From contig JAPZAR010000026.1 of assembly GCA_027460535.1 (NCBI GenBank), forward strand, positions 1-9,404: a stretch of DNA of 9,404 nt, in the 5' to 3' direction. Each line of letters starts with the position of its first letter. Within the stretch, counting starts at the first letter, position 1. This document shows, in pieces, positions 1 to 5,822 of this stretch. Below the pieces are notes generated by a model that made no database searches, had not been told where the DNA came from, and saw nothing but the letters and a program-made list of their open reading frames with translations. The translations under genes and the position numbers were made by a program. The stretch is from Candidatus Methanoperedens sp. GTDB taxonomy: Archaea > Halobacteriota > Methanosarcinia > Methanosarcinales > Methanoperedenaceae.

Positions 1-1361
1 TCAATCCTGTCAGGGCGTTCATATCGAATTTCCCGGGTAATCCCATGCTGGTTCATCGATAAATTATCTTTCTTTGCAGCATCGGAACTTTCCATCGCCG
101 AATATACTTTCGATTGTCCCCGCAATGATCCTGAAACATTGAATTTATTATTTAGTTTTTTAAATACCGCAGGCGATGTGGCATTATAGCGCATCGATCC
201 TGTTTTTTCAAACCACCTGTCCTTCTGCAAATATACCGAATCTGCAGGGCTAAGGATGATTTTTGCACGTCCTGCCGTAAGATATGAGAAATAATAGGAA
301 CTGATATGCCAGTCAGGAGCATGCTTATATCGAACATTCCGGGCAATAACGTCCTGATTCATCGATACATTATCCATTCTTGCCTCGGAACTTTCCATCG
401 CCAAATATACTTTTGAAGATCCTCCCATTGATCCTGAAATATCAAGGTCTTTTATTTTTCGAAATACCTCAGGTGAAGTGACATTATAGCGCATCGATCC
501 TGCTTTTTCTGGGTACCTGGCCCTCTGCAAATATCCCGAAGCGGCTGGGCTCAGGGCGATTTTGGCAGGTCCTGCCATAAGGTATGAGATATGATAAGAA
601 TTGTCCCGCCGTTTGGAAGTCTGGGCATAAGAATAATTTATCTCTCTGGTTCCTTTGTTCCTTATAGGCAATAATTTACCATAATTTTTTCCCAGTTCAT
701 GATGCATTTGCAGCATCATCTGGTGAAACACATTGAGATAAATAAATTCAGGAAAGATATTGGAATTCAATTGTTTCCATTGACTGATTGTTTGAACATA
801 TTGAGATCGAATCGAGTTTCCAGACTGTCCTGAAATCTTAAATGAATCACTCTTTGAACCATATGGTTGGACAATCTCCGGCATTGAAATAAAATTATAT
901 CCAGTATTTGCGCTTTTCCCCCGGATATTAAGAAAAACAAGGATTTTGTCCTGTTCAAATGAACCGGTATGATATTTTTTGGAAACGATCTGTTTAACCG
1001 AATTTGAAATCCGTTTCAATCCTTTTTCACTCGATTGCAGATGGGGTTCTATGAACTCTATTATAAAAGACACATGTTCCATCGGACTGGTGCCGGATAC
1101 ACTCATGGACTTTCTGACCATCCCGAAATAAAGACTGAAGTGGAACCTGTAATAATTGATGATTGATTTGCTTTTGGGATACGGTCTCAGTTTCCCGCTC
1201 TCAATTTTATTACTGAACAATTTGAGGAAGATCAAGGATGGAAGCATTCCTGATTTCCTGATAAAAGCGTATTTATTTAATATCCGCCTGGAAAATTCAA
1301 GACCTGTAAAGCCTATCCTGATGTTCTTTGCTGCATTCTTGTTTTTTCTTCTTTCCTGCAT
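1..1361 (-). CDS. Hypothetical CIS-associated protein. The 5' end is complete and the 3' end is cut by the window edge (at least 453 codons). The C-terminal part consists of tandem ~100-aa repeats.
   Basis: Hand translation of the minus strand shows that the frame with codons at 3k..3k+2 has no TTA/CTA/TCA (no stop) from 1361 down to 3. That is 453 sense codons, improbable by chance in AT-rich DNA. The ATG at 1361-1359 is preceded by AAGGAG with a 6-nt spacer. The protein begins MQERRKNKNAAKNIRIGFTGLEFS and reads ...SMNQHGITREIRYERPDRI at the edge. It is missing from the ORF track only because no stop lies inside the window. It sits 63 nt downstream of tube gene 2 on the same strand. I recognised no family by eye. 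Confidence 0.8.
   Translation of the reverse strand, partial: MQERRKNKNAAKNIRIGFTGLEFSRRILNKYAFIRKSGMLPSLIFLKLFSNKIESGKLRPYPKSKSIINYYRFHFSLYFGMVRKSMSVSGTSPMEHVSFIIEFIEPHLQSSEKGLKRISNSVKQIVSKKYHTGSFEQDKILVFLNIRGKSANTGYNFISMPEIVQPYGSKSDSFKISGQSGNSIRSQYVQTISQWKQLNSNIFPEFIYLNVFHQMMLQMHHELGKNYGKLLPIRNKGTREINYSYAQTSKRRDNSYHISYLMAGPAKIALSPAASGYLQRARYPEKAGSMRYNVTSPEVFRKIKDLDISGSMGGSSKVYLAMESSEARMDNVSMNQDVIARNVRYKHAPDWHISSYYFSYLTAGRAKIILSPADSVYLQKDRWFEKTGSMRYNATSPAVFKKLNNKFNVSGSLRGQSKVYSAMESSDAAKKDNLSMNQHGITREIRYERPDRI
3..611 (-). repeat. Tandem in-frame coding repeat, period ~300-303 bp (~100-101 aa). Two full copies are in the window, and a repeat-end motif precedes the first copy.
   Basis: At the DNA level, 'gcattatagcgcatcgatcctg' at 181-202 matches 'acattatagcgcatcgatcctg' at 481-502 (offset 300). 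'tccatcgcc' at 91 matches the copy at 394 (offset 303, a one-codon indel). At the protein level, SYHISYLMAGPAKIALSPAASGYLQRARYPEKAGSMRYNVTSPEVFRK...AMESSEARMDNVSMNQDVIARNVRYKHAPDW aligns with SYYFSYLTAGRAKIILSPADSVYLQKDRWFEKTGSMRYNATSPAVFKK...AMESSDAAKKDNLSMNQHGITREIRYERPDR. The end motif TREI(N/R)Y also occurs just before the first copy (GTREINYSY). Confidence 0.9.
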
Positions 1362-1424
1362 TCAATTCTCCTTGTTCATTAGCTTTATATCCTGGGTAAC
1401 AGTCCTGCCGAAAAATGCCAGAAG

Positions 1425-1853
1425 CTACAGCAAGCCATGATGGGTAAGAACAAGCGACTCACTTGCAACAGTATTACTTGACGCATTAAGAGTCGGTCCA
1501 TCCCACTTAATGGGATATGCCTCAAAAAATGCCCACCACATTACAGTATTTCCAGAGGGATCTTGAAGGTAGATAGTGCCATTTTTCCTTTGTATATCTC
1601 CATGTATGCCGCTATAGAACCATTCCCATAGCTCAAGATCGGCAAGTCCTGTTTTTAATGTAATGTCCGAATATTTGACGCCTTTTGGGAGCTTATGTTC
1701 AAAATCATTAACTCCTCCTTCCTTAATGGTATCAACTTCTATCTGAATGCCCAGACCTGAGACCTCTGTGAAACCGCCTCGAATAATTCCATCTATTTCC
1801 ACTTTGAATTTAAAAGCCCCGAAGGGCTCATTTCGTGGTGTACCATCCGGCAT
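1425..1853 (-). CDS. Contractile-tail tube protein, paralogue 2 (T4 gp19-like / eCIS tube family, in an Afp5/Pvc5-like position)
   Basis: 142-aa ORF. The N-terminus MPDGTPRNEPFGAFKFKVEIDGIIRGGFTEVSGL and the C-terminal segment WWAFFEAYPIKWDGPTLNASSNTVASESLVLTHHGL match the hallmark pattern of the gp19-like tube family. It is clearly paralogous to the 149-aa ORF at 2428-2877. GGAGGT lies immediately upstream of the ATG. Confidence 0.92.
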   Translation of the reverse strand: MPDGTPRNEPFGAFKFKVEIDGIIRGGFTEVSGLGIQIEVDTIKEGGVNDFEHKLPKGVKYSDITLKTGLADLELWEWFYSGIHGDIQRKNGTIYLQDPSGNTVMWWAFFEAYPIKWDGPTLNASSNTVASESLVLTHHGLL

Positions 1854-1861
1854 TATACCTC

Positions 1862-2074
1862 CTATATGTTCAATATGTTCTTCGATCCTTCAGAATTGAT
1901 CTTTTTATTTATTTTGCTGACCTCATCGCACCATAGCTTACGCTCTCTATGCTCCATGTTCAAAATCGTATCATAATCCCAGTGGAAATGATATGCCAGA
2001 AAGGCTACCTCCTCATACAGTCTGTCGAGGGGGTAGCCAGTTATTCCCCCTGCGACTGCATATCGATATCGAAC
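1862..2074 (-). CDS. Start-less ORF in the -1 frame relative to the 122-aa gene (70 sense codons plus stop). Candidate frameshift extension of the chaperone-like protein, or a small protein with non-canonical initiation.
   Basis: Minus-strand codons with low coordinate = 2 mod 3 are open from 2074 to the TAG at 1864-1862. They read VRYRYAVAGGITGYPLDRLYEEVAFLAYHFHWDYDTILNMEHRERKLWCDEVSKINKKINSEGSKNILNI. The peptide looks protein-like (amphipathic, aromatic HFHW core). The only ATG is 40 codons in (1957-1955). The frame overlaps the last 11 codons of the 122-aa ORF and fills what is otherwise a 187-nt gap in a tightly packed operon. Confidence 0.45.
   Translation of the reverse strand, partial: VRYRYAVAGGITGYPLDRLYEEVAFLAYHFHWDYDTILNMEHRERKLWCDEVSKINKKINSEGSKNILNI
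2003..2038 (-). other. GC-rich RNA hairpin (11 of 12 bp paired, 12-nt loop). It starts 5 nt downstream of the G5 run and stop codon of the 122-aa gene and is a candidate frameshift-stimulating structure.
   Basis: On the minus-strand RNA the arms are GGCUACCCCCUC (2038-2027) and GAGGAGGUAGCC (2014-2003), with one C/A mismatch. The 3' arm contains a GAGGAGG Shine-Dalgarno-like string. Confidence 0.4.
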
Positions 2075-2409
2075 TTATGTTCGCACTTCGGGCATTTGGT
2101 CTTGATCACATTTGACCCGTTCTGGTTGATCCTGGTATACATCTCCTGGAGATACGCAAAGTCTCCTGCAAAGAGCCCTTCTATCACCATTGGAGTTACC
2201 ATCTTCATGCTTCCCAGTTGTGTAATCACCCTTGAGAGAAGTATGACGGTCAAGTACGCAGGATTTGTCTGAACTCTTGGATCTTTCATGGGCAGTATTT
2301 CATCTGCTGCTGTTGCAAGTTTCATCTTGCCCTGTTTGTGAAGAGTTCCGGTCTCGTCAACATATCCCATGGGCAGGGTAAAATCGTGCTCAGTCTGTAA
2401 GACTCCCAT
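2041..2409 (-). CDS. Small conserved CIS protein between the two tube genes, a putative tail assembly chaperone-like protein
   Basis: 122-aa ORF with AAGGTGGT upstream of the ATG. It lies directly after tube gene 1, the position of gpG/gpE-type chaperones in long-tailed phages. The segment HKQGKMKLATAADEILPMKDPRV resembles the 'one-strand, R/K-x-x-T/A-x-x-D-E/L' core of phage tail assembly proteins. This is my recollection, not a search result. There is a single C-terminal CPKCEH knuckle. Confidence 0.7.
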   Translation of the reverse strand: MGVLQTEHDFTLPMGYVDETGTLHKQGKMKLATAADEILPMKDPRVQTNPAYLTVILLSRVITQLGSMKMVTPMVIEGLFAGDFAYLQEMYTRINQNGSNVIKTKCPKCEHKFDIDMQSQGE

Positions 2410-2427
2410 TTTACCACCTTAAGTTCA

Positions 2428-2877
2428 TTACTTAACTCTCTTTATTCCTTCATGTACAATCTCGATCGATTCTATCAGGACTTCGCTTCCTTTCGCGCTG
2501 AAATCCGATGGATCATACTTTGTGGGCCATGCCTCAAAAATTTCCCAGCGTGCTTTATCATTTCCCTCGTCATCAATTGCTATCAGAGATATGCTTTTTC
2601 TTGCATCCTGGGAATTTGCTCCTTTATCTTCGATCAGCTGTCTCCAGTTATAAAGATCCAATGAATCAGTAATACCTTTTTTGAGAGTTACATTCCCGTA
2701 CTTGGTGAGACCGGAAAGCTGTTTCTGATGTGGGGCGTCTATACCCTCTCTGTACTCAATAGGTGTACCGGAATTATCCGGGATTGTTGCTTCTGAAAAA
2801 CCAGCTATCGTGATTCCTTTGATCTCAACCCTGAATCTGAAATTCCTGTACGGATCATCTCTTGCTCCAGTTGGCAT
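2428..2877 (-). CDS. Contractile-tail tube protein, paralogue 1 (T4 gp19-like / eCIS tube family, Afp1/Pvc1-like)
   Basis: 149-aa ORF. The segments MPTGARDDPYRNFRFRVEIKGITIAGFSEA, PIEYREG, LTKYGNVTLKKGITDS, WEIFEAWPTKYDPSDFSAKGSEVLIESIEIVHEGI form the classic tube-family signature. AGGAGG lies upstream. The gene starts 23 nt after the sheath stop. Confidence 0.95.
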   Translation of the reverse strand: MPTGARDDPYRNFRFRVEIKGITIAGFSEATIPDNSGTPIEYREGIDAPHQKQLSGLTKYGNVTLKKGITDSLDLYNWRQLIEDKGANSQDARKSISLIAIDDEGNDKARWEIFEAWPTKYDPSDFSAKGSEVLIESIEIVHEGIKRVK

Positions 2878-2900
2878 ATGCTTTTCCTCCTTTAATTATT

Positions 2901-4754
2901 TTATTTCGTCAATGTTTTTTGCATTATTCTTATAATTACGAATTCGGCTGGCTTCACAGGCGCCACACCAATATCGATGATTAACTGTCCTGCATCTCTT
3001 ACCTCGGGCGGATTGTTCTCTGCATCCACCTTGACGAAAAATGCCTCATCAGGTGTACTTCCGAATAAAGCACCACTTCTCCAGACCCTCAACAGGAAGG
3101 CGGTTACGTTCCTGATAACAGAACCCCAAAGTTTGGGATCGTTCGGCTCAAAGACAACCCACTGTGTTGCTTCATCAAGGGATTCTTCGAGATAAAGGAA
3201 GAGCCGCCTTATGTTTATATATTTCCATTCTGCATCTGAACTGAGCGTATAAGCGCCCCAGATGCAGATTCCAGAGGTCGGGAACTTTCGGATGACATTT
3301 ATTTGCCGCTGATGCAGTCCATCATGTTCGCCTTTTGATACGAGTTTTTCAACATCGAGCGCTTTATCAAGAAAACCATCTGGAGTCCCGGCCGGTGCTT
3401 TGTGCACTCCTCGTGTGGCATCGACATATGCATAAGTTCCCATAGCCGCACCAGACGGCGGCACAGGTATTGTCGATCCGGTTATAGGGTCATAGATGAT
3501 AATCCAGGGATAGTACATCGCTCCATATTTATTATCAAAGCTGTTTCTCATTGTCTTTATCCCATCGATATCTTTGTTCTTGGCAGGATCGATGATAAAG
3601 AAGCAGTCTTTTCTCGTCATACAGTAAGTAAGTCCCGCCTGCATTGCTGCGATCTTACCAGCCATATCAGGCATTGCAACGATATTTATATCATCGATCA
3701 TGTCGAATGCATGAAGACCGTTCTGCGCCTTTTCATCGCCTTCAAAGTCAGAAGGCGAAAGTGCAGACGCATCGTCTAAACCACCTGTAAGTGGAGTTTC
3801 TGCGATTAACGCGGGGATATTTCCTGACCCTGTTATGTTAGCGGCACCCTCAACCCAGGAATCTTTTTCAACCACGATGAGTGCAGATTTATTGTTTATA
3901 AGGGCTTCAATCGTGTCCATTATGAGGTCATTATGGGTTTCCGTTGTAGTAGTACCATATTTCACGATCAGATTGAACTTTGTTGGTGGGTCAGCATCAT
4001 GCTTCACTTCGATAGTCACATCGTTTCCTCTTGAGCCGGTAAAATATGACGAGACTCTCAACGACTTTTTGTCCGCTCTGTCCTTCAGAGTAATGCCTGC
4101 TGTGGGCGATATACCATCGTCACCTCCAGCCAGGGGTAAAGGAGAAGCGGATTTGTTGGGGATTTTTCCCAAACCGGTCTTCGGAGTACCGAATTCATCC
4201 CAGTTATCCTTTTCAACTCTGATATACTTTGAATTGCTTTTTATTGTTTCTTCTACAATTTCCATCGTGAGGTTTTCATGCGTCTCCACAGCGTCATTAT
4301 TGTATTTTACGATCAGATTGAAACCATCTTTTAATGTTTTCTCCGTAGAATCATTCACGTCGATGGTAATATTGTCCCCCCACCTACCTTCTGATGTCGC
4401 AGAAACTCTCATTGAGTCACCGCCATCAGCATCCTTTAAAGTAGCTGCCGAAATCTTGGCAGTCTTTGTCGCAGGATTTTGATAATTTGTATAATGGCAT
4501 GTCCTGACAACAAAGCATTTTGTTCCGCCTTCATCGAAAAACAGTTTCACGGCGTATGCGAGATACCCGTTAGGGATAAAGCCTCCGAATATATCCACAA
4601 ACCGTGCCCAGTTTGGTATTTCCTTTGCCTCGCCTATTGGCCCCTTTTCGGCTATCCCAACAAATGCGCCGTTCGAAGTGCCAACACCCGTAATTGGTTT
4701 TACTCCTGAGGACAATTCCTCAACATAAACTCCTGGTGATAGATAACTAGCCAT
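2901..4754 (-). CDS. Contractile tail sheath protein (phage sheath / eCIS sheath family), enlarged by an internal domain duplication
   Basis: 617-aa ORF. The N-terminus MASYLSPGVYVEELSSGVKPITGVGTSNGAFVGIAEKGP is the canonical sheath start. The C-terminal half (YGAMYYPWIIIYDP, VPPSGAAMGTYAYVDATRGVHKAPAG, INVIRKFPTSGICIWGAYTL, WKYINIRRLFLYLEESL, FEPNDPKLW, FFVKVDAENNPPEVRDAGQLIIDIGVAPVKPAEFVIIRI) matches the conserved sheath C-terminal domain. GGAGGT lies upstream of the ATG. Confidence 0.96.
   Translation of the reverse strand: MASYLSPGVYVEELSSGVKPITGVGTSNGAFVGIAEKGPIGEAKEIPNWARFVDIFGGFIPNGYLAYAVKLFFDEGGTKCFVVRTCHYTNYQNPATKTAKISAATLKDADGGDSMRVSATSEGRWGDNITIDVNDSTEKTLKDGFNLIVKYNNDAVETHENLTMEIVEETIKSNSKYIRVEKDNWDEFGTPKTGLGKIPNKSASPLPLAGGDDGISPTAGITLKDRADKKSLRVSSYFTGSRGNDVTIEVKHDADPPTKFNLIVKYGTTTTETHNDLIMDTIEALINNKSALIVVEKDSWVEGAANITGSGNIPALIAETPLTGGLDDASALSPSDFEGDEKAQNGLHAFDMIDDINIVAMPDMAGKIAAMQAGLTYCMTRKDCFFIIDPAKNKDIDGIKTMRNSFDNKYGAMYYPWIIIYDPITGSTIPVPPSGAAMGTYAYVDATRGVHKAPAGTPDGFLDKALDVEKLVSKGEHDGLHQRQINVIRKFPTSGICIWGAYTLSSDAEWKYINIRRLFLYLEESLDEATQWVVFEPNDPKLWGSVIRNVTAFLLRVWRSGALFGSTPDEAFFVKVDAENNPPEVRDAGQLIIDIGVAPVKPAEFVIIRIMQKTLTK
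3753..4445 (-). repeat. Tandem duplication of a ~115-aa domain inside the sheath CDS (residues ~104-216 and ~220-334)
   Basis: Copy 1 reads ATLKDADGGDSMRVSATSEGRWGDNITIDVNDSTEKTLKDGFNLIVKYNNDAVETHENLTMEIVEETIKSNSKYIRVEKDNWDEFG...PLAGGDDGISP. Copy 2 reads ITLKDRADKKSLRVSSYFTGSRGNDVTIEVKHDADPPTKFNLIVKYGTTTTETHNDLIMDTIEALINNKSALIVVEKDSWVEGA...PLTGGLDDASALSP. A DNA trace remains: 'ttcacgatcagattgaa' near 3960 and 'tttacgatcagattgaa' near 4305, offset 345 bp. Confidence 0.9.
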
Positions 4755-4785
4755 ACATACCTCCTATTTCGATTTCTGAAATTCA

Positions 4786-5034
4786 TTACCTTCCTTTTCT
4801 TCCATAGCTGCTTCTCTTTGCTGAAGTTACTTCACTTTTTTCTTCAGCTTTTTCTCCACCCTCTTCAGTTCGAATCAAGATGATATCGCCTTTTTGAAGA
4901 AGATTTTTCAGATGTTTTGACCTAAGGTCGTCATCAGAAATTTTGGATGAACCTTTTGCCAAAAGATCAATATCTTTACCGCCCTCCAGGTTAATCAATA
5001 ACCTCTGGTTCAATTTGTTGCGAACAACAAGCAT
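4786..5034 (-). CDS. Small hypothetical protein, first gene of the structural operon. N-terminal ~55-aa module followed by a charged tail.
   Basis: 82-aa ORF with a strong AAGGAGGA site upstream of the ATG. Its stop is 31 nt before the sheath start. It shares the pattern N-x-R-x-LL ... GGK-x-I-x-L ... IIL with two upstream segments (5229-5426 and 5480-5785). Confidence 0.75.
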   Translation of the reverse strand: MLVVRNKLNQRLLINLEGGKDIDLLAKGSSKISDDDLRSKHLKNLLQKGDIILIRTEEGGEKAEEKSEVTSAKRSSYGRKGR

Positions 5035-5051
5035 ATATCCTCCTTATGAGC

Positions 5052-5060
5052 TTTTATATA
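5052..5060 (-). promoter_or_regulatory. TATA-like / -10-like element (TATATAAAA on the minus strand) about 20 nt upstream of the 82-aa gene start
   Basis: The minus strand reads ...aatcaacTATATAAAAgctcataAGGAGGatatATG. This could be a bacterial -10 (TATAAA) or an archaeal TATA box. No convincing -35 or BRE is visible. Confidence 0.25.
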
Positions 5061-5108
5061 GTTGATTATTTTATTATTCATGTTTCCTTTATCACTTCAA
5101 TATGTTTT

Positions 5109-5184
5109 TTGAATTGAAAATCATCTTCTGCAACAGGTTGCAGAAATAAATTCCAAATCACATTTTAAATGTGCCTCAATTCAA
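5109..5184. promoter_or_regulatory. Cluster of inverted repeats upstream of the structural operon: a 9-bp outer inverted repeat enclosing two near-perfect palindromes
   Basis: Outer arms are 'ttgaattga' at 5109-5117 and 'tcaattcaa' at 5176-5184. Palindrome 1 is 'ttctgcaac ag gttgcagaa' at 5126-5145 (9+9). Palindrome 2 is 'cacattt t aaatgtg' at 5159-5173 (7+1+7, perfect). The cluster lies 75-150 nt upstream of the first structural gene. Confidence 0.4.
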
Positions 5185-5228
5185 TCATTTCTATGGTAGT
5201 ATCAAATTTTAGATATAACACCTCCAAT

Positions 5229-5426
5229 TTATAGTCTAGTTAATATTATAGTTTCGATATACGTGGGCGTATCCTTTTTAAAAAAAAACGCCTTTTTAAA
5301 AGTCTTGTATCCATCCTTCATAATGTCAAGGGTTATGTTTTTACCACCATCGGCTGAACTAAACCGGATAAAGAATCCATCCTTCCTCTTCAGAAGTCGC
5401 TGATTTTGAAGGGATCTCCGTGACTC
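5229..5426 (-). pseudogene. Start-less degenerate paralogue of the 82-aa small protein (65 sense codons plus stop), located inside the spacer
   Basis: The minus frame with codons at 3k is open from 5426 to the TAA at 5231-5229. It reads ESRRSLQNQRLLKRKDGFFIRFSSADGGKNITLDIMKDGYKTFKKAFFFKKDTPTYIETIILTRL. It shares NQRLL, GGK(N/D)I(T/D)L and IIL with the 82-aa protein, with the same 26-residue spacing between the last two motifs. No ATG/GTG/TTG precedes the conserved part. A TAA sits where the start would be expected, and there is no Shine-Dalgarno site. Confidence 0.45.
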
Positions 5427-5479
5427 TTATTGATTCACCTAGAATTAATCCGCCTCGACAATTCTGCCGATTATAACGG

Positions 5480-5785
5480 TTATCCCCTCAGGAAAGGGAT
5501 AATTGACATTTGATTTAATATTATACTGGTAACAGGATTTTTGGCATCAACAAGAACAGAATCAACATAGACCTTTCCCATTTTCAGTTTGATGTTTCGA
5601 CTTCCTTGCTGTAATAATATCCTCCTCCTGTTATGCTTTGTTTCCCTTCCGGAATCCATTAGAAGAAAATGACCCGTAGTGTTCCTTATGATGTCTCTCC
5701 TTTTTTTTTCAGCTTCAAGGTATAAATTCCTGAATGCGCTTTTATCCTTGTTAGGGGAAAGATCATCCATTAGCAATACAGCCAT
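5480..5785 (-). CDS. Small hypothetical protein downstream of the cap gene. Its C-terminal half is related to the 82-aa protein.
   Basis: 101-aa ORF starting 37 nt after the DUF4255 stop, with no Shine-Dalgarno site. Residues 52-90 (NRRRILLQQGSRNIKLKMGKVYVDSVLVDAKNPVTSIIL) carry the same N-x-R-x-LL / G-x-(K/R)-N-I-x-L / IIL pattern. An internal ATG at 5659-5657 (M43) would match the N-terminal length of the 82-aa paralogue. Confidence 0.45.
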   Translation of the reverse strand: MAVLLMDDLSPNKDKSAFRNLYLEAEKKRRDIIRNTTGHFLLMDSGRETKHNRRRILLQQGSRNIKLKMGKVYVDSVLVDAKNPVTSIILNQMSIIPFLRG

Positions 5786-5822
5786 TTAGTTTTGATGTAA
5801 GCCTTTCAAGAAATACCATCAT

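Follow-up and report, generated by a model that had tools for sequence, protein, structure and literature searches.

The DNA considered here, hereafter the window, comprises 9,404 nucleotides of Candidatus Methanoperedens sp. (assembly GCA_027460535.1, contig JAPZAR010000026.1, positions 1 to 9,404), and carries a contractile injection system (CIS) locus whose genes all lie on the minus strand. Directly after the first of its two tube genes stands a pair of reading frames, namely a 122-aa gene related to phage tail assembly chaperones and, in the -1 frame relative to it, a peptide of the Pfam family DUF6760; the second tube gene comes next, followed by the open reading frame (ORF) 1361-1. As far as the sequence can tell, the 3' end of this tail assembly chaperone (TAC) gene of a Methanoperedens-like archaeon very probably contains a programmed -1 ribosomal frameshift signal, with a 122-aa and a 182-aa protein as the predicted products. 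The initial annotation of the window had proposed such a shift, and its coordinates for the ORF, the G5 run, the gap, the -1 frame and the hairpin were all correct (Table 1).

The frame of the 122-aa protein terminates in CAG GGG GAA TAA, and the protein carries a zinc-ribbon-like CPxCxH motif at its C-terminus. It matches PHROG 508 "tail assembly chaperone" with an E-value of 5.6e-7, as do all of the relatives tested that contain the N-domain (18/18, best E 1.5e-9), and it has no match in Pfam or NCBIfam. A public protein identical to it bears the name [quoted passage not shown], which assigns the window to an archaeon of the ANME-2d type. Judged by these matches, the 122-aa protein is a TAC relative.

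The 187-nt gap between this gene and the ATG of tube gene 2 is filled by the -1 frame, in which 70 open codons lie between TAA 2077-2075 and TAG 1864-1862, the latter 8 nt ahead of the tube-2 ATG. No ATG, GTG or TTG precedes the conserved part of this frame in the window. The -1 peptide, presented earlier as protein-like and worth a conservation check, is indeed conserved: it reaches 61.2 bits against Pfam DUF6760 (PF20546; E 1e-16; gathering cut-off 27 bits), a score by which it is a member of that family. Residues 1-121 joined to the -1 part give the predicted 182-aa long product, ...MQSQGG/ITGYPLDRLYEEVAF..., whose C-terminal 61 residues are the DUF6760 domain.

Table 1. Positions of genes and signal elements in the window.
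Feature	Position	Strand	Basis or remark
AAA ATPase	8611-6389	minus	ORF list and Pfam
Pvc16_N protein	6389-5823	minus	ORF list and Pfam
Sheath gene	4754-2901	minus	ORF list and Pfam
Tube gene 1 (upstream of chaperone)	2877-2428	minus	Pfam Phage_T4_gp19, E 1.9e-39
Chaperone-like gene, 122 aa	2409-2041, including TAA stop	minus	ORF; phrog_508 match
Slippery heptamer G_GGG_GAA	2050-2044	minus	zero-frame codons caG GGG GAA
Zero-frame stop TAA	2043-2041	minus	directly after heptamer, within spacer
-1 coding part (E'-like, Pfam DUF6760)	2050 (GGG 2050-2048) to 1862 (TAG 1864-1862)	minus	translation; Pfam
Stimulatory hairpin (candidate)	2038-2003	minus	begins 5 nt past heptamer; 11/12 paired
Hairpin 5' arm (GGCTACCCCCTC, GGCUACCCCCUC)	2038-2027	minus	codes GYPL
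Hairpin loop, 12 nt	2026-2015	minus	
Hairpin 3' arm (GAGGAGGTAGCC, GAGGAGGUAGCC)	2014-2003	minus	codes EEVA
Tube gene 2 (downstream)	1853-1425	minus	Pfam Phage_T4_gp19, E 7.6e-40

Frame relation across homologous loci

Two samples of homologous loci were compared. The first was selected by protein: one genome per species was scanned, 591 loci were confirmed, and the best 80 were used, which come from Methanoperedens, Methanosarcina, Methanothrix, ANME-2 (ANME, anaerobic methanotrophic archaea), Hydrothermarchaeota, Paenibacillus, other Bacillota, Acidobacteriota, Nitrospirota, cyanobacteria, Chloroflexota, Myxococcota, Proteobacteria and others. Chaperone and DUF6760 were mapped separately on each of these loci, and their relative frame was read. 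The second sample was selected by nucleotide, with a 48-nt cassette pattern that gave at least 120 matches in metagenome contigs, from which 80 loci were fetched. The same pattern had no match in 2.9 million IMG/VR viral contigs, and tblastn gave no match among 50,697 phage records.

Of the 80 protein-selected loci, 76 have DUF6760 in the -1 frame, as does the window itself, and none has it in +1. Four loci have it in the same frame as the chaperone, two of them with a stop and an own ATG, while L012 is one uninterrupted ORF; L011, a same-frame locus, has a stop within the aligned region. One locus is without DUF6760. The conserved GYPL motif always starts 2-5 nt beyond the chaperone stop. Among the cassette-selected loci, the CPxC C-terminus of the chaperone in the zero frame is combined with DUF6760 in -1 without exception (80/80). 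No ATG, GTG or TTG occurs anywhere in the open -1 frame of 36 of these 80 loci, and a canonical start lies within four codons of GYPL in only 7; the share without any of the three codons is about the same, about half, in the protein-selected set including the window. The frame relation and the lack of a start codon first claimed for the window are thus borne out by its homologues.

An assembly error, or a decaying pseudogene whose real gene would be a single in-frame ORF, can hardly be credited as the source of this pattern. It is true that homopolymers are error-prone and that some database entries are in frame, but the whole arrangement was found in about 150 independent loci and goes far beyond what chance would give. 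The same -1 relation stands in as many independent assemblies, including plasmids and finished isolate genomes (Paenibacillus, Methanosarcina sp. DH2, Nostoc, Rhodococcus and Streptomyces), with zero +1 cases and with the zero-frame stop conserved right behind the heptamer (directly in 44/76 loci and one codon later in 31/76).

Selection on the slip site and the hairpin

The junctions of the 76 -1 loci were aligned without gaps, anchored on GYPL (alignment A2). At the window position, 45 of them have the heptamer G_GGG_GAA, 15 have G_GGG_GGG, 10 have G_GGG_GGA and one has G_GGG_GAG, and in two further loci (L076, L080) G_GGG_GAA stands one codon further upstream with an 8-nt spacer. G_GGG_GNN is therefore found in 73/76 loci, with a spacer of 5 nt in 71 and 8 nt in 2. 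In the window, where the G5 run occupies 2050-2046, a tRNA-Gly on GGG 2049-2047 could re-pair perfectly on GGG 2050-2048. The first G of the heptamer comes from a codon that stands for any of 11 amino acids (L, P, A, S, V, Q, E, G, M, T, R) and yet is always NNG; therefore, it is the nucleotide that is under selection, in a fixed codon register. Furthermore, the -1 frame of L003 is closed by a stop immediately ahead of the heptamer, and that of L025 and L045, which contain no start codon at all, opens 10 nt ahead of the zero-frame stop. The shift window is 7-10 nt in these three loci, and the change of frame must therefore occur on the G-run.

Two deviating sites were seen. L070 (Myxococcaceae) has C_CCT_TGA instead of the G-run and keeps the hairpin, including a compensatory U-A pair, and L057 (Nitrospirota) has a degenerate site, C_GGG_GCA, with a degenerate hairpin and no start codon.

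The frame could in principle be changed at the level of nucleic acid, by RNA polymerase slippage on the G-run or by variation in the length of the DNA homopolymer (phase variation). Run lengths do spread from G5 to G9 between loci, and a few assemblies are in frame, with the run extended by one G or shortened by two (L081/L082 with G8, L084 with G5). We consider this very unlikely, however, as the 3' five G's are the only ones fixed, and the constant codon register and the constant 5-nt distance to the hairpin are of consequence to a ribosome and not to a polymerase. A run of G5 is also much shorter than those known for transcriptional slippage or phase variation.

The second element of the signal is the hairpin. 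Folded alone, the hairpin of the window has a stability of -21.6 kcal/mol (z = -4.4), which none of 200 shuffles reached. Over the 76 loci, 95.3% of the cells of the helix (A2 columns 13-24 x 37-48) are paired, and pairing goes down to 31-62% when the 3' partner is slid by 1-3 columns. Compensatory double changes occur at 4 pairs, the observed pairing or covariation score was reached by 0/500 shuffles, and RNAalifold independently predicts the same helix. The clearest covariation is a change from C-G to U-A in 4 loci, in which Tyr TAC has turned into TAT and Val GTA into Ile ATA; here an amino-acid change is tolerated for the sake of the base pair. Stability ranges from -17 to -24 kcal/mol across diverse loci, and Streptomyces retains the hairpin with a different sequence. 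A stable downstream structure with covariation support is thus present. Rfam has no family within the window.

Both arms also encode protein, and inside the stem alone synonymous sites hardly vary. Wobble variation there amounts to 0.00 bit for GGC, 0.35 for TAC, 0.68 for CCC, 0.19 and 0.10 for GAG, 0.22 for GTA and 0.34 for GCC; the same amino acids outside the stem vary more freely, with 1.91 bit for the Ala three codons later and 0.95-0.97 bit for Tyr in the loop or downstream.

Two further properties of this segment (window 2003-2050, minus strand) were observed. One is that the 3' arm, GAGGAGGU, reads as a perfect Shine-Dalgarno-like sequence. The other is an alternative pairing of the G-run with the CCCCC of the 5' arm, which is the minimum-free-energy fold of a longer fragment; such pairing would sequester the slip site until the ribosome arrives.

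Natural controls come from four lineages that supply DUF6760 with an ATG of its own (Halococcaceae, L002; Oscillospiraceae, L010; Nitrospiraceae, L037; and the plasmid pHBOR03 of Halogeometricum borinquense, L087). The G-run and the hairpin are both gone from these loci, with z of +0.2 to +1.2. The two elements accordingly go with the start-less arrangement, which answers in the affirmative the earlier question of whether they vary together. L087 is a published haloarchaeal CIS resembling a type VI secretion system (PMC11566945); its segment 1486-2288 contains a longer, 178-aa homologue of the chaperone and a separate 89-aa DUF6760 gene that overlap by ATGA, and neither gene is called a CIS component in that publication. 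Tandem copies offer another comparison. In proteins of about 250 aa, two copies of the chaperone are fused in frame (P0001, P0005, P0009, P0015, P0056). In one tandem locus (L215, 1501-2417), the internal copy encodes PGES as CCC GGC GAA TCC, with no G-run, and the distal copy, which adjoins DUF6760, reads CCG GGG GAA TCG TAG and has kept the hairpin.

These controls bear on the possibility that DUF6760 is an independent small gene, translated through termination-reinitiation or from a non-canonical start (ATA, ATC, GTT and others), for which the G-run would act as a Shine-Dalgarno-like sequence. The NCBI pipeline PGAP annotates it in this way, with starts at ATA in Nostoc, at GTG in Streptomyces and at an internal TTG in Rhodococcus; the own ATG of the four lineages above is genuine, and an ATG or GTG stands at -6 or -3 in a minority of the frameshift-type loci. 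Nevertheless, we regard an independent gene as unlikely. The annotated starts disagree with each other and none is conserved, with 12 codons found at -6 and 22 at -3. The G-run ends 0-1 nt ahead of the candidate codon, a distance too short for a Shine-Dalgarno sequence, and a stable hairpin within 5 nt would hinder initiation, yet it is missing exactly where a true ATG is present. Initiation, finally, would have no use for a strict NNG rule or for a G-run in a fixed codon register.

The predicted fusion and its relation to phage tail chaperones

In an AlphaFold model of the 182-aa fusion (mean predicted local distance difference test, pLDDT, of 77), the N-domain is alpha/beta, junction residues 116-124 are disordered (pLDDT <50), and the C-domain is helical and confident (pLDDT about 90). 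A Foldseek search with this model found no meaningful neighbour in the PDB. Its matches in BFVD are weak: 7e-5 to an uncharacterised protein of a Bacillus phage, 5e-3 to a T4-like baseplate hub assembly protein and 1.4e-2 to a "tape measure chaperone". They may lend soft support at most.

The predicted junction QGG-ITGYPL is colinear with in-frame forms. One of these, the complete 150-aa protein P0355, is a clean in-frame fusion of chaperone and DUF6760: the N-part hits PHROG 508 and the C-part DUF6760 (1.3e-11), and the junction, SESDIIYPLDW, has no GG and is not derivable from a G-run. By its sequence, P0355 indicates that a covalent chaperone-DUF6760 fusion is viable, and it is the sole natural case on which we rely. 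Other in-frame "fusions" were dropped as proof of fusion, with the G-run still present in their DNA. An exhaustive HMMER search returned 1926 cluster representatives of the family, and for almost every one of the best 150 the match stops at the position of the frameshift.

The closest known counterpart is gpE/gpE+E' of phage P2. P2 gpE+E' is annotated with a -1 frameshift, and in Pfam its residues 7-85 are covered by Phage_TAC_7 and residues 104-139, the E' part, by Phage_P2_GpE (PF06528). In three hhalign runs, DUF6760 aligned in the same register with residues 90-133, directly past the P2 shift site (E 1.4e-5, 80%; 1.1e-4, 57%; 2.7e-4, 41%), and only this C-terminal match to gpE+E' was reported. 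The shared pattern is G..(Y/F)P...D.L...VA...FHW(P)..E...M...E...W, and 3 of 24 DUF6760 members have weak matches to PF06528 itself. An E' profile enlarged with more P2-like E' sequences gave no stronger match between DUF6760 and E', because both alignments are low in diversity. DUF6760 and P2 E' are probably homologous on these profile alignments, which are suggestive and fall below a firm threshold; the earlier guess of an E/E'-like arrangement agrees with them.

The likeness extends to the arrangement. Both systems belong to contractile tails, and in both a start-less -1 ORF comes after a short chaperone gene, the zero-frame stop stands a few codons past the shift, two products would share their N-terminus, and the extension domains align, with the FHW(P)..E...W motif in each. 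PGAP splits both in two, the P2-type E' appearing as a "GpE family phage tail protein" of 39-52 aa. On the other hand, the slip site is T_TTT_TTG in P2 and G_GGG_GAA here, where a 12-bp hairpin, strongly conserved, follows after 5 nt; the N-domain here is the longer one and has the CPxCxH ribbon; the gene that directly follows encodes a tube protein and not a tape-measure protein; and the locus is a CIS with ATPase and Pvc16 rather than a phage, with archaea among the hosts.

In lambda, gpG/gpGT are made by a low-frequency -1 shift, and the extra domain of the long form is thought to link the complex of tape measure and chaperone to the tube protein; the tail-chaperone frameshift was reportedly found by Xu, Hendrix and Duda in 2004 to be conserved in long-tailed phages. 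The logic is the same here and the gene likewise adjoins a tube gene, whereas neither G nor T showed a relation in sequence, the lambda tail is non-contractile, and function here is deduced by comparison. As a signal, the cassette resembles the dnaX-type -1 signals of bacteria in its heptamer, its spacer (about 5-6 nt in those), its stable hairpin and a zero-frame stop soon after. It differs in that the heptamer is G-rich, that no upstream Shine-Dalgarno stimulator was identified here, that the same bases form the hairpin arms and code for conserved protein motifs, and that the signal occurs in both bacteria and archaea.

Another small protein encoded near CIS tube genes is Cis6/Afp6/Pvc6, the spike-plug protein (PMC8894136; PMC12210884). 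DUF6760 differs from it in standing ahead of tube gene 2 rather than behind it and in resembling P2 E'. The initial annotation had allowed that the -1 peptide might elsewhere be a separate small ORF at the Afp6 position. Identity with Cis6/Afp6 was rejected at the level of sequence: against PDB chains, CIS structures included, the fusion profile had no match below E 0.35, and no match listed was a CIS component.

Several observations weigh against a programmed frameshift in a gpE-like chaperone. The commonest heptamer, G_GGG_GAA, is not of the form X_XXY_YYZ, so that an A-site tRNA-Glu would need to tolerate the change from GAA to GGA; the initial annotation had raised this caveat, which stands for the window and does not apply to 25/76 relatives, where the canonical G_GGG_GGA or G_GGG_GGG occupies the same position. 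ATG or GTG occurs 1-2 codons ahead of GYPL in about 10% of loci, where a TGA stop or a Val codon happens to create it; reinitiation could add to frameshifting in these loci. The existence of lineages that encode DUF6760 separately means that a covalent fusion is not universally required. Most in-frame "fusions" in the databases keep a G-run, one base longer or two shorter, or are garbled (L081-L084, L012, P0312 and others); they may be homopolymer errors and count for little, and several come from error-prone assemblies (L083, L012, L090 and the garbled P0312, P0327, P0391, P0419, P0435). As to ancestry, the homology with P2 E' is moderate (probability 41-80%). The N-domain of the window protein has no match to gpE (Pfam PF10109, Phage_TAC_7), and just one of 37 relatives reached E 0.028; a possible link between the N-domain and gpE would be drawn from phrog_508 and the weak Foldseek matches only.

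Our preference for a programmed -1 frameshift is based on the frame relation, the lack of start codons, the selection at the nucleotide level on slip site and hairpin, and the resemblance to E'. From these we infer that slippage takes place. The majority of ribosomes would read ...CAG GGG GAA UAA and release the 122-aa chaperone, and a fraction would stall with GGG and GAA in the P and A sites. At the stall, about 11 nt would separate the P-site codon from the base of the hairpin downstream of it, with this base at the mRNA entrance, which is the typical geometry of -1 frameshift stimulators. The peptidyl-tRNA-Gly would then slip from GGG 2049-2047 to GGG 2050-2048, and reading would go on with GGA AUA ACU GGC UAC... 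to yield the 182-aa protein. A slip in the P site only would give ...QGG/ITGYPL, with the junction peptide FDIDMQSQGGITGYPLDR; a tandem slip tolerating a central G:U would give ...QGE/ITGYPL (...QGEITGYPLDR), with the junction peptide FDIDMQSQGEITGYPLDR. In L086 the conceptual fusion has the junction ...LGGIVTYALPR.

A chaperone function is suggested by P2, lambda and synteny. By analogy with gpE/gpE+E' and gpG/gpGT, the short form may coat a tape-measure-like protein, the extra domain of the long form may bring the tape-measure complex to the tube or baseplate, and both forms would be absent from the finished particle. Overall, the sequence comparisons support a tail-chaperone -1 frameshift of the G/GT and E/E+E' kind that appears to operate here in non-phage injection systems of bacteria and archaea, with a signal under unusually strong constraint.

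Neighbouring genes, annotation and significance

The surroundings of the pair contain several features of their own. Tube gene 2 has GGAGGT in front of its ATG at 1853. The DNA similarity to Methanoperedens relatives ends exactly where this gene ends, and ORF 1361-1, which comes after it, is therefore a variable gene. This ORF has at least 453 codons and runs past the start of the window, and it contains tandem repeats of about 300 nt at 21-603, 75-84% identical, that encode protein repeats of about 100 aa. It has no Pfam match, and a tape-measure gene was not identified within the window; tape-measure-related genes or proteins have been reported from related CIS clusters (PMC11126660). At the other end, a 204-nt tandem duplication (8779-8982 and 8983-9186, 97% identity) spans the 5' end and upstream region of a Cys-rich 103-aa ORF (8589-8900, minus), and its second copy contains a frame-disrupted N-terminus of that ORF. 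For the ATPase ORF the start given is a TTG overlapping the upstream gene, and an ATG about 24 codons in (MTMYQNN...) looks the likelier start.

In public annotation the pair appears as two PGAP genes, "phage tail assembly protein" and "DUF6760 family protein". The called versions of the latter are of two types: some start at the ATG made by a TGA stop (MTGYPL..., 60 aa), and others start at upstream codons and thereby add an out-of-frame reading of the chaperone C-terminus. A collection of 5.8 billion proteins yielded at least 8000 chaperone candidates against 112 DUF6760 proteins, two numbers that come from searches relying on shared words and are not strictly comparable. The DUF6760 of the window is not among the 112 found, and its chaperone is present at 100% identity.

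In a full-text literature search, which had most subscription journals outside its reach, no chaperone or frameshift was mentioned for CIS (PMC10066040; PMC11566945; PMC8894136; PMC12210884; PMC11126660; PMC13277306; PROCIS preprint). Where the chaperone and DUF6760 genes are concerned, this literature gives them an "unknown function" or omits them.

We think it rather probable, with less assurance than for the frameshift itself, that a single near-invariant -1 cassette, consisting of the G-run heptamer, a 5-nt spacer and a hairpin formed by the GYPL and EEVA codons, works on the ribosomes of bacteria and archaea alike, has been carried along with a large CIS clade (Streptomyces, cyanobacterial, Paenibacillus and methanogen/ANME loci), and makes an unrecognised two-form core assembly chaperone resembling gpE/E+E'.

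For annotation, the finding bears on DUF6760 genes whose starts are inconsistent and sometimes non-canonical, or which are not called at all. For research on recoding, it offers a compact 48-nt cassette with natural on and off variants, which is among very few candidate archaeal -1 frameshift signals and is present in the culturable Methanosarcina sp. DH2 (L045), a member of a genetically tractable genus. If the reading is true, a conserved assembly component in two protein forms would join the parts list of a widespread CIS clade, which includes experimentally used Streptomyces systems and archaeal relatives, and recoding this region, or cloning the "two genes" apart in heterologous expression or refactoring, would destroy the signal.

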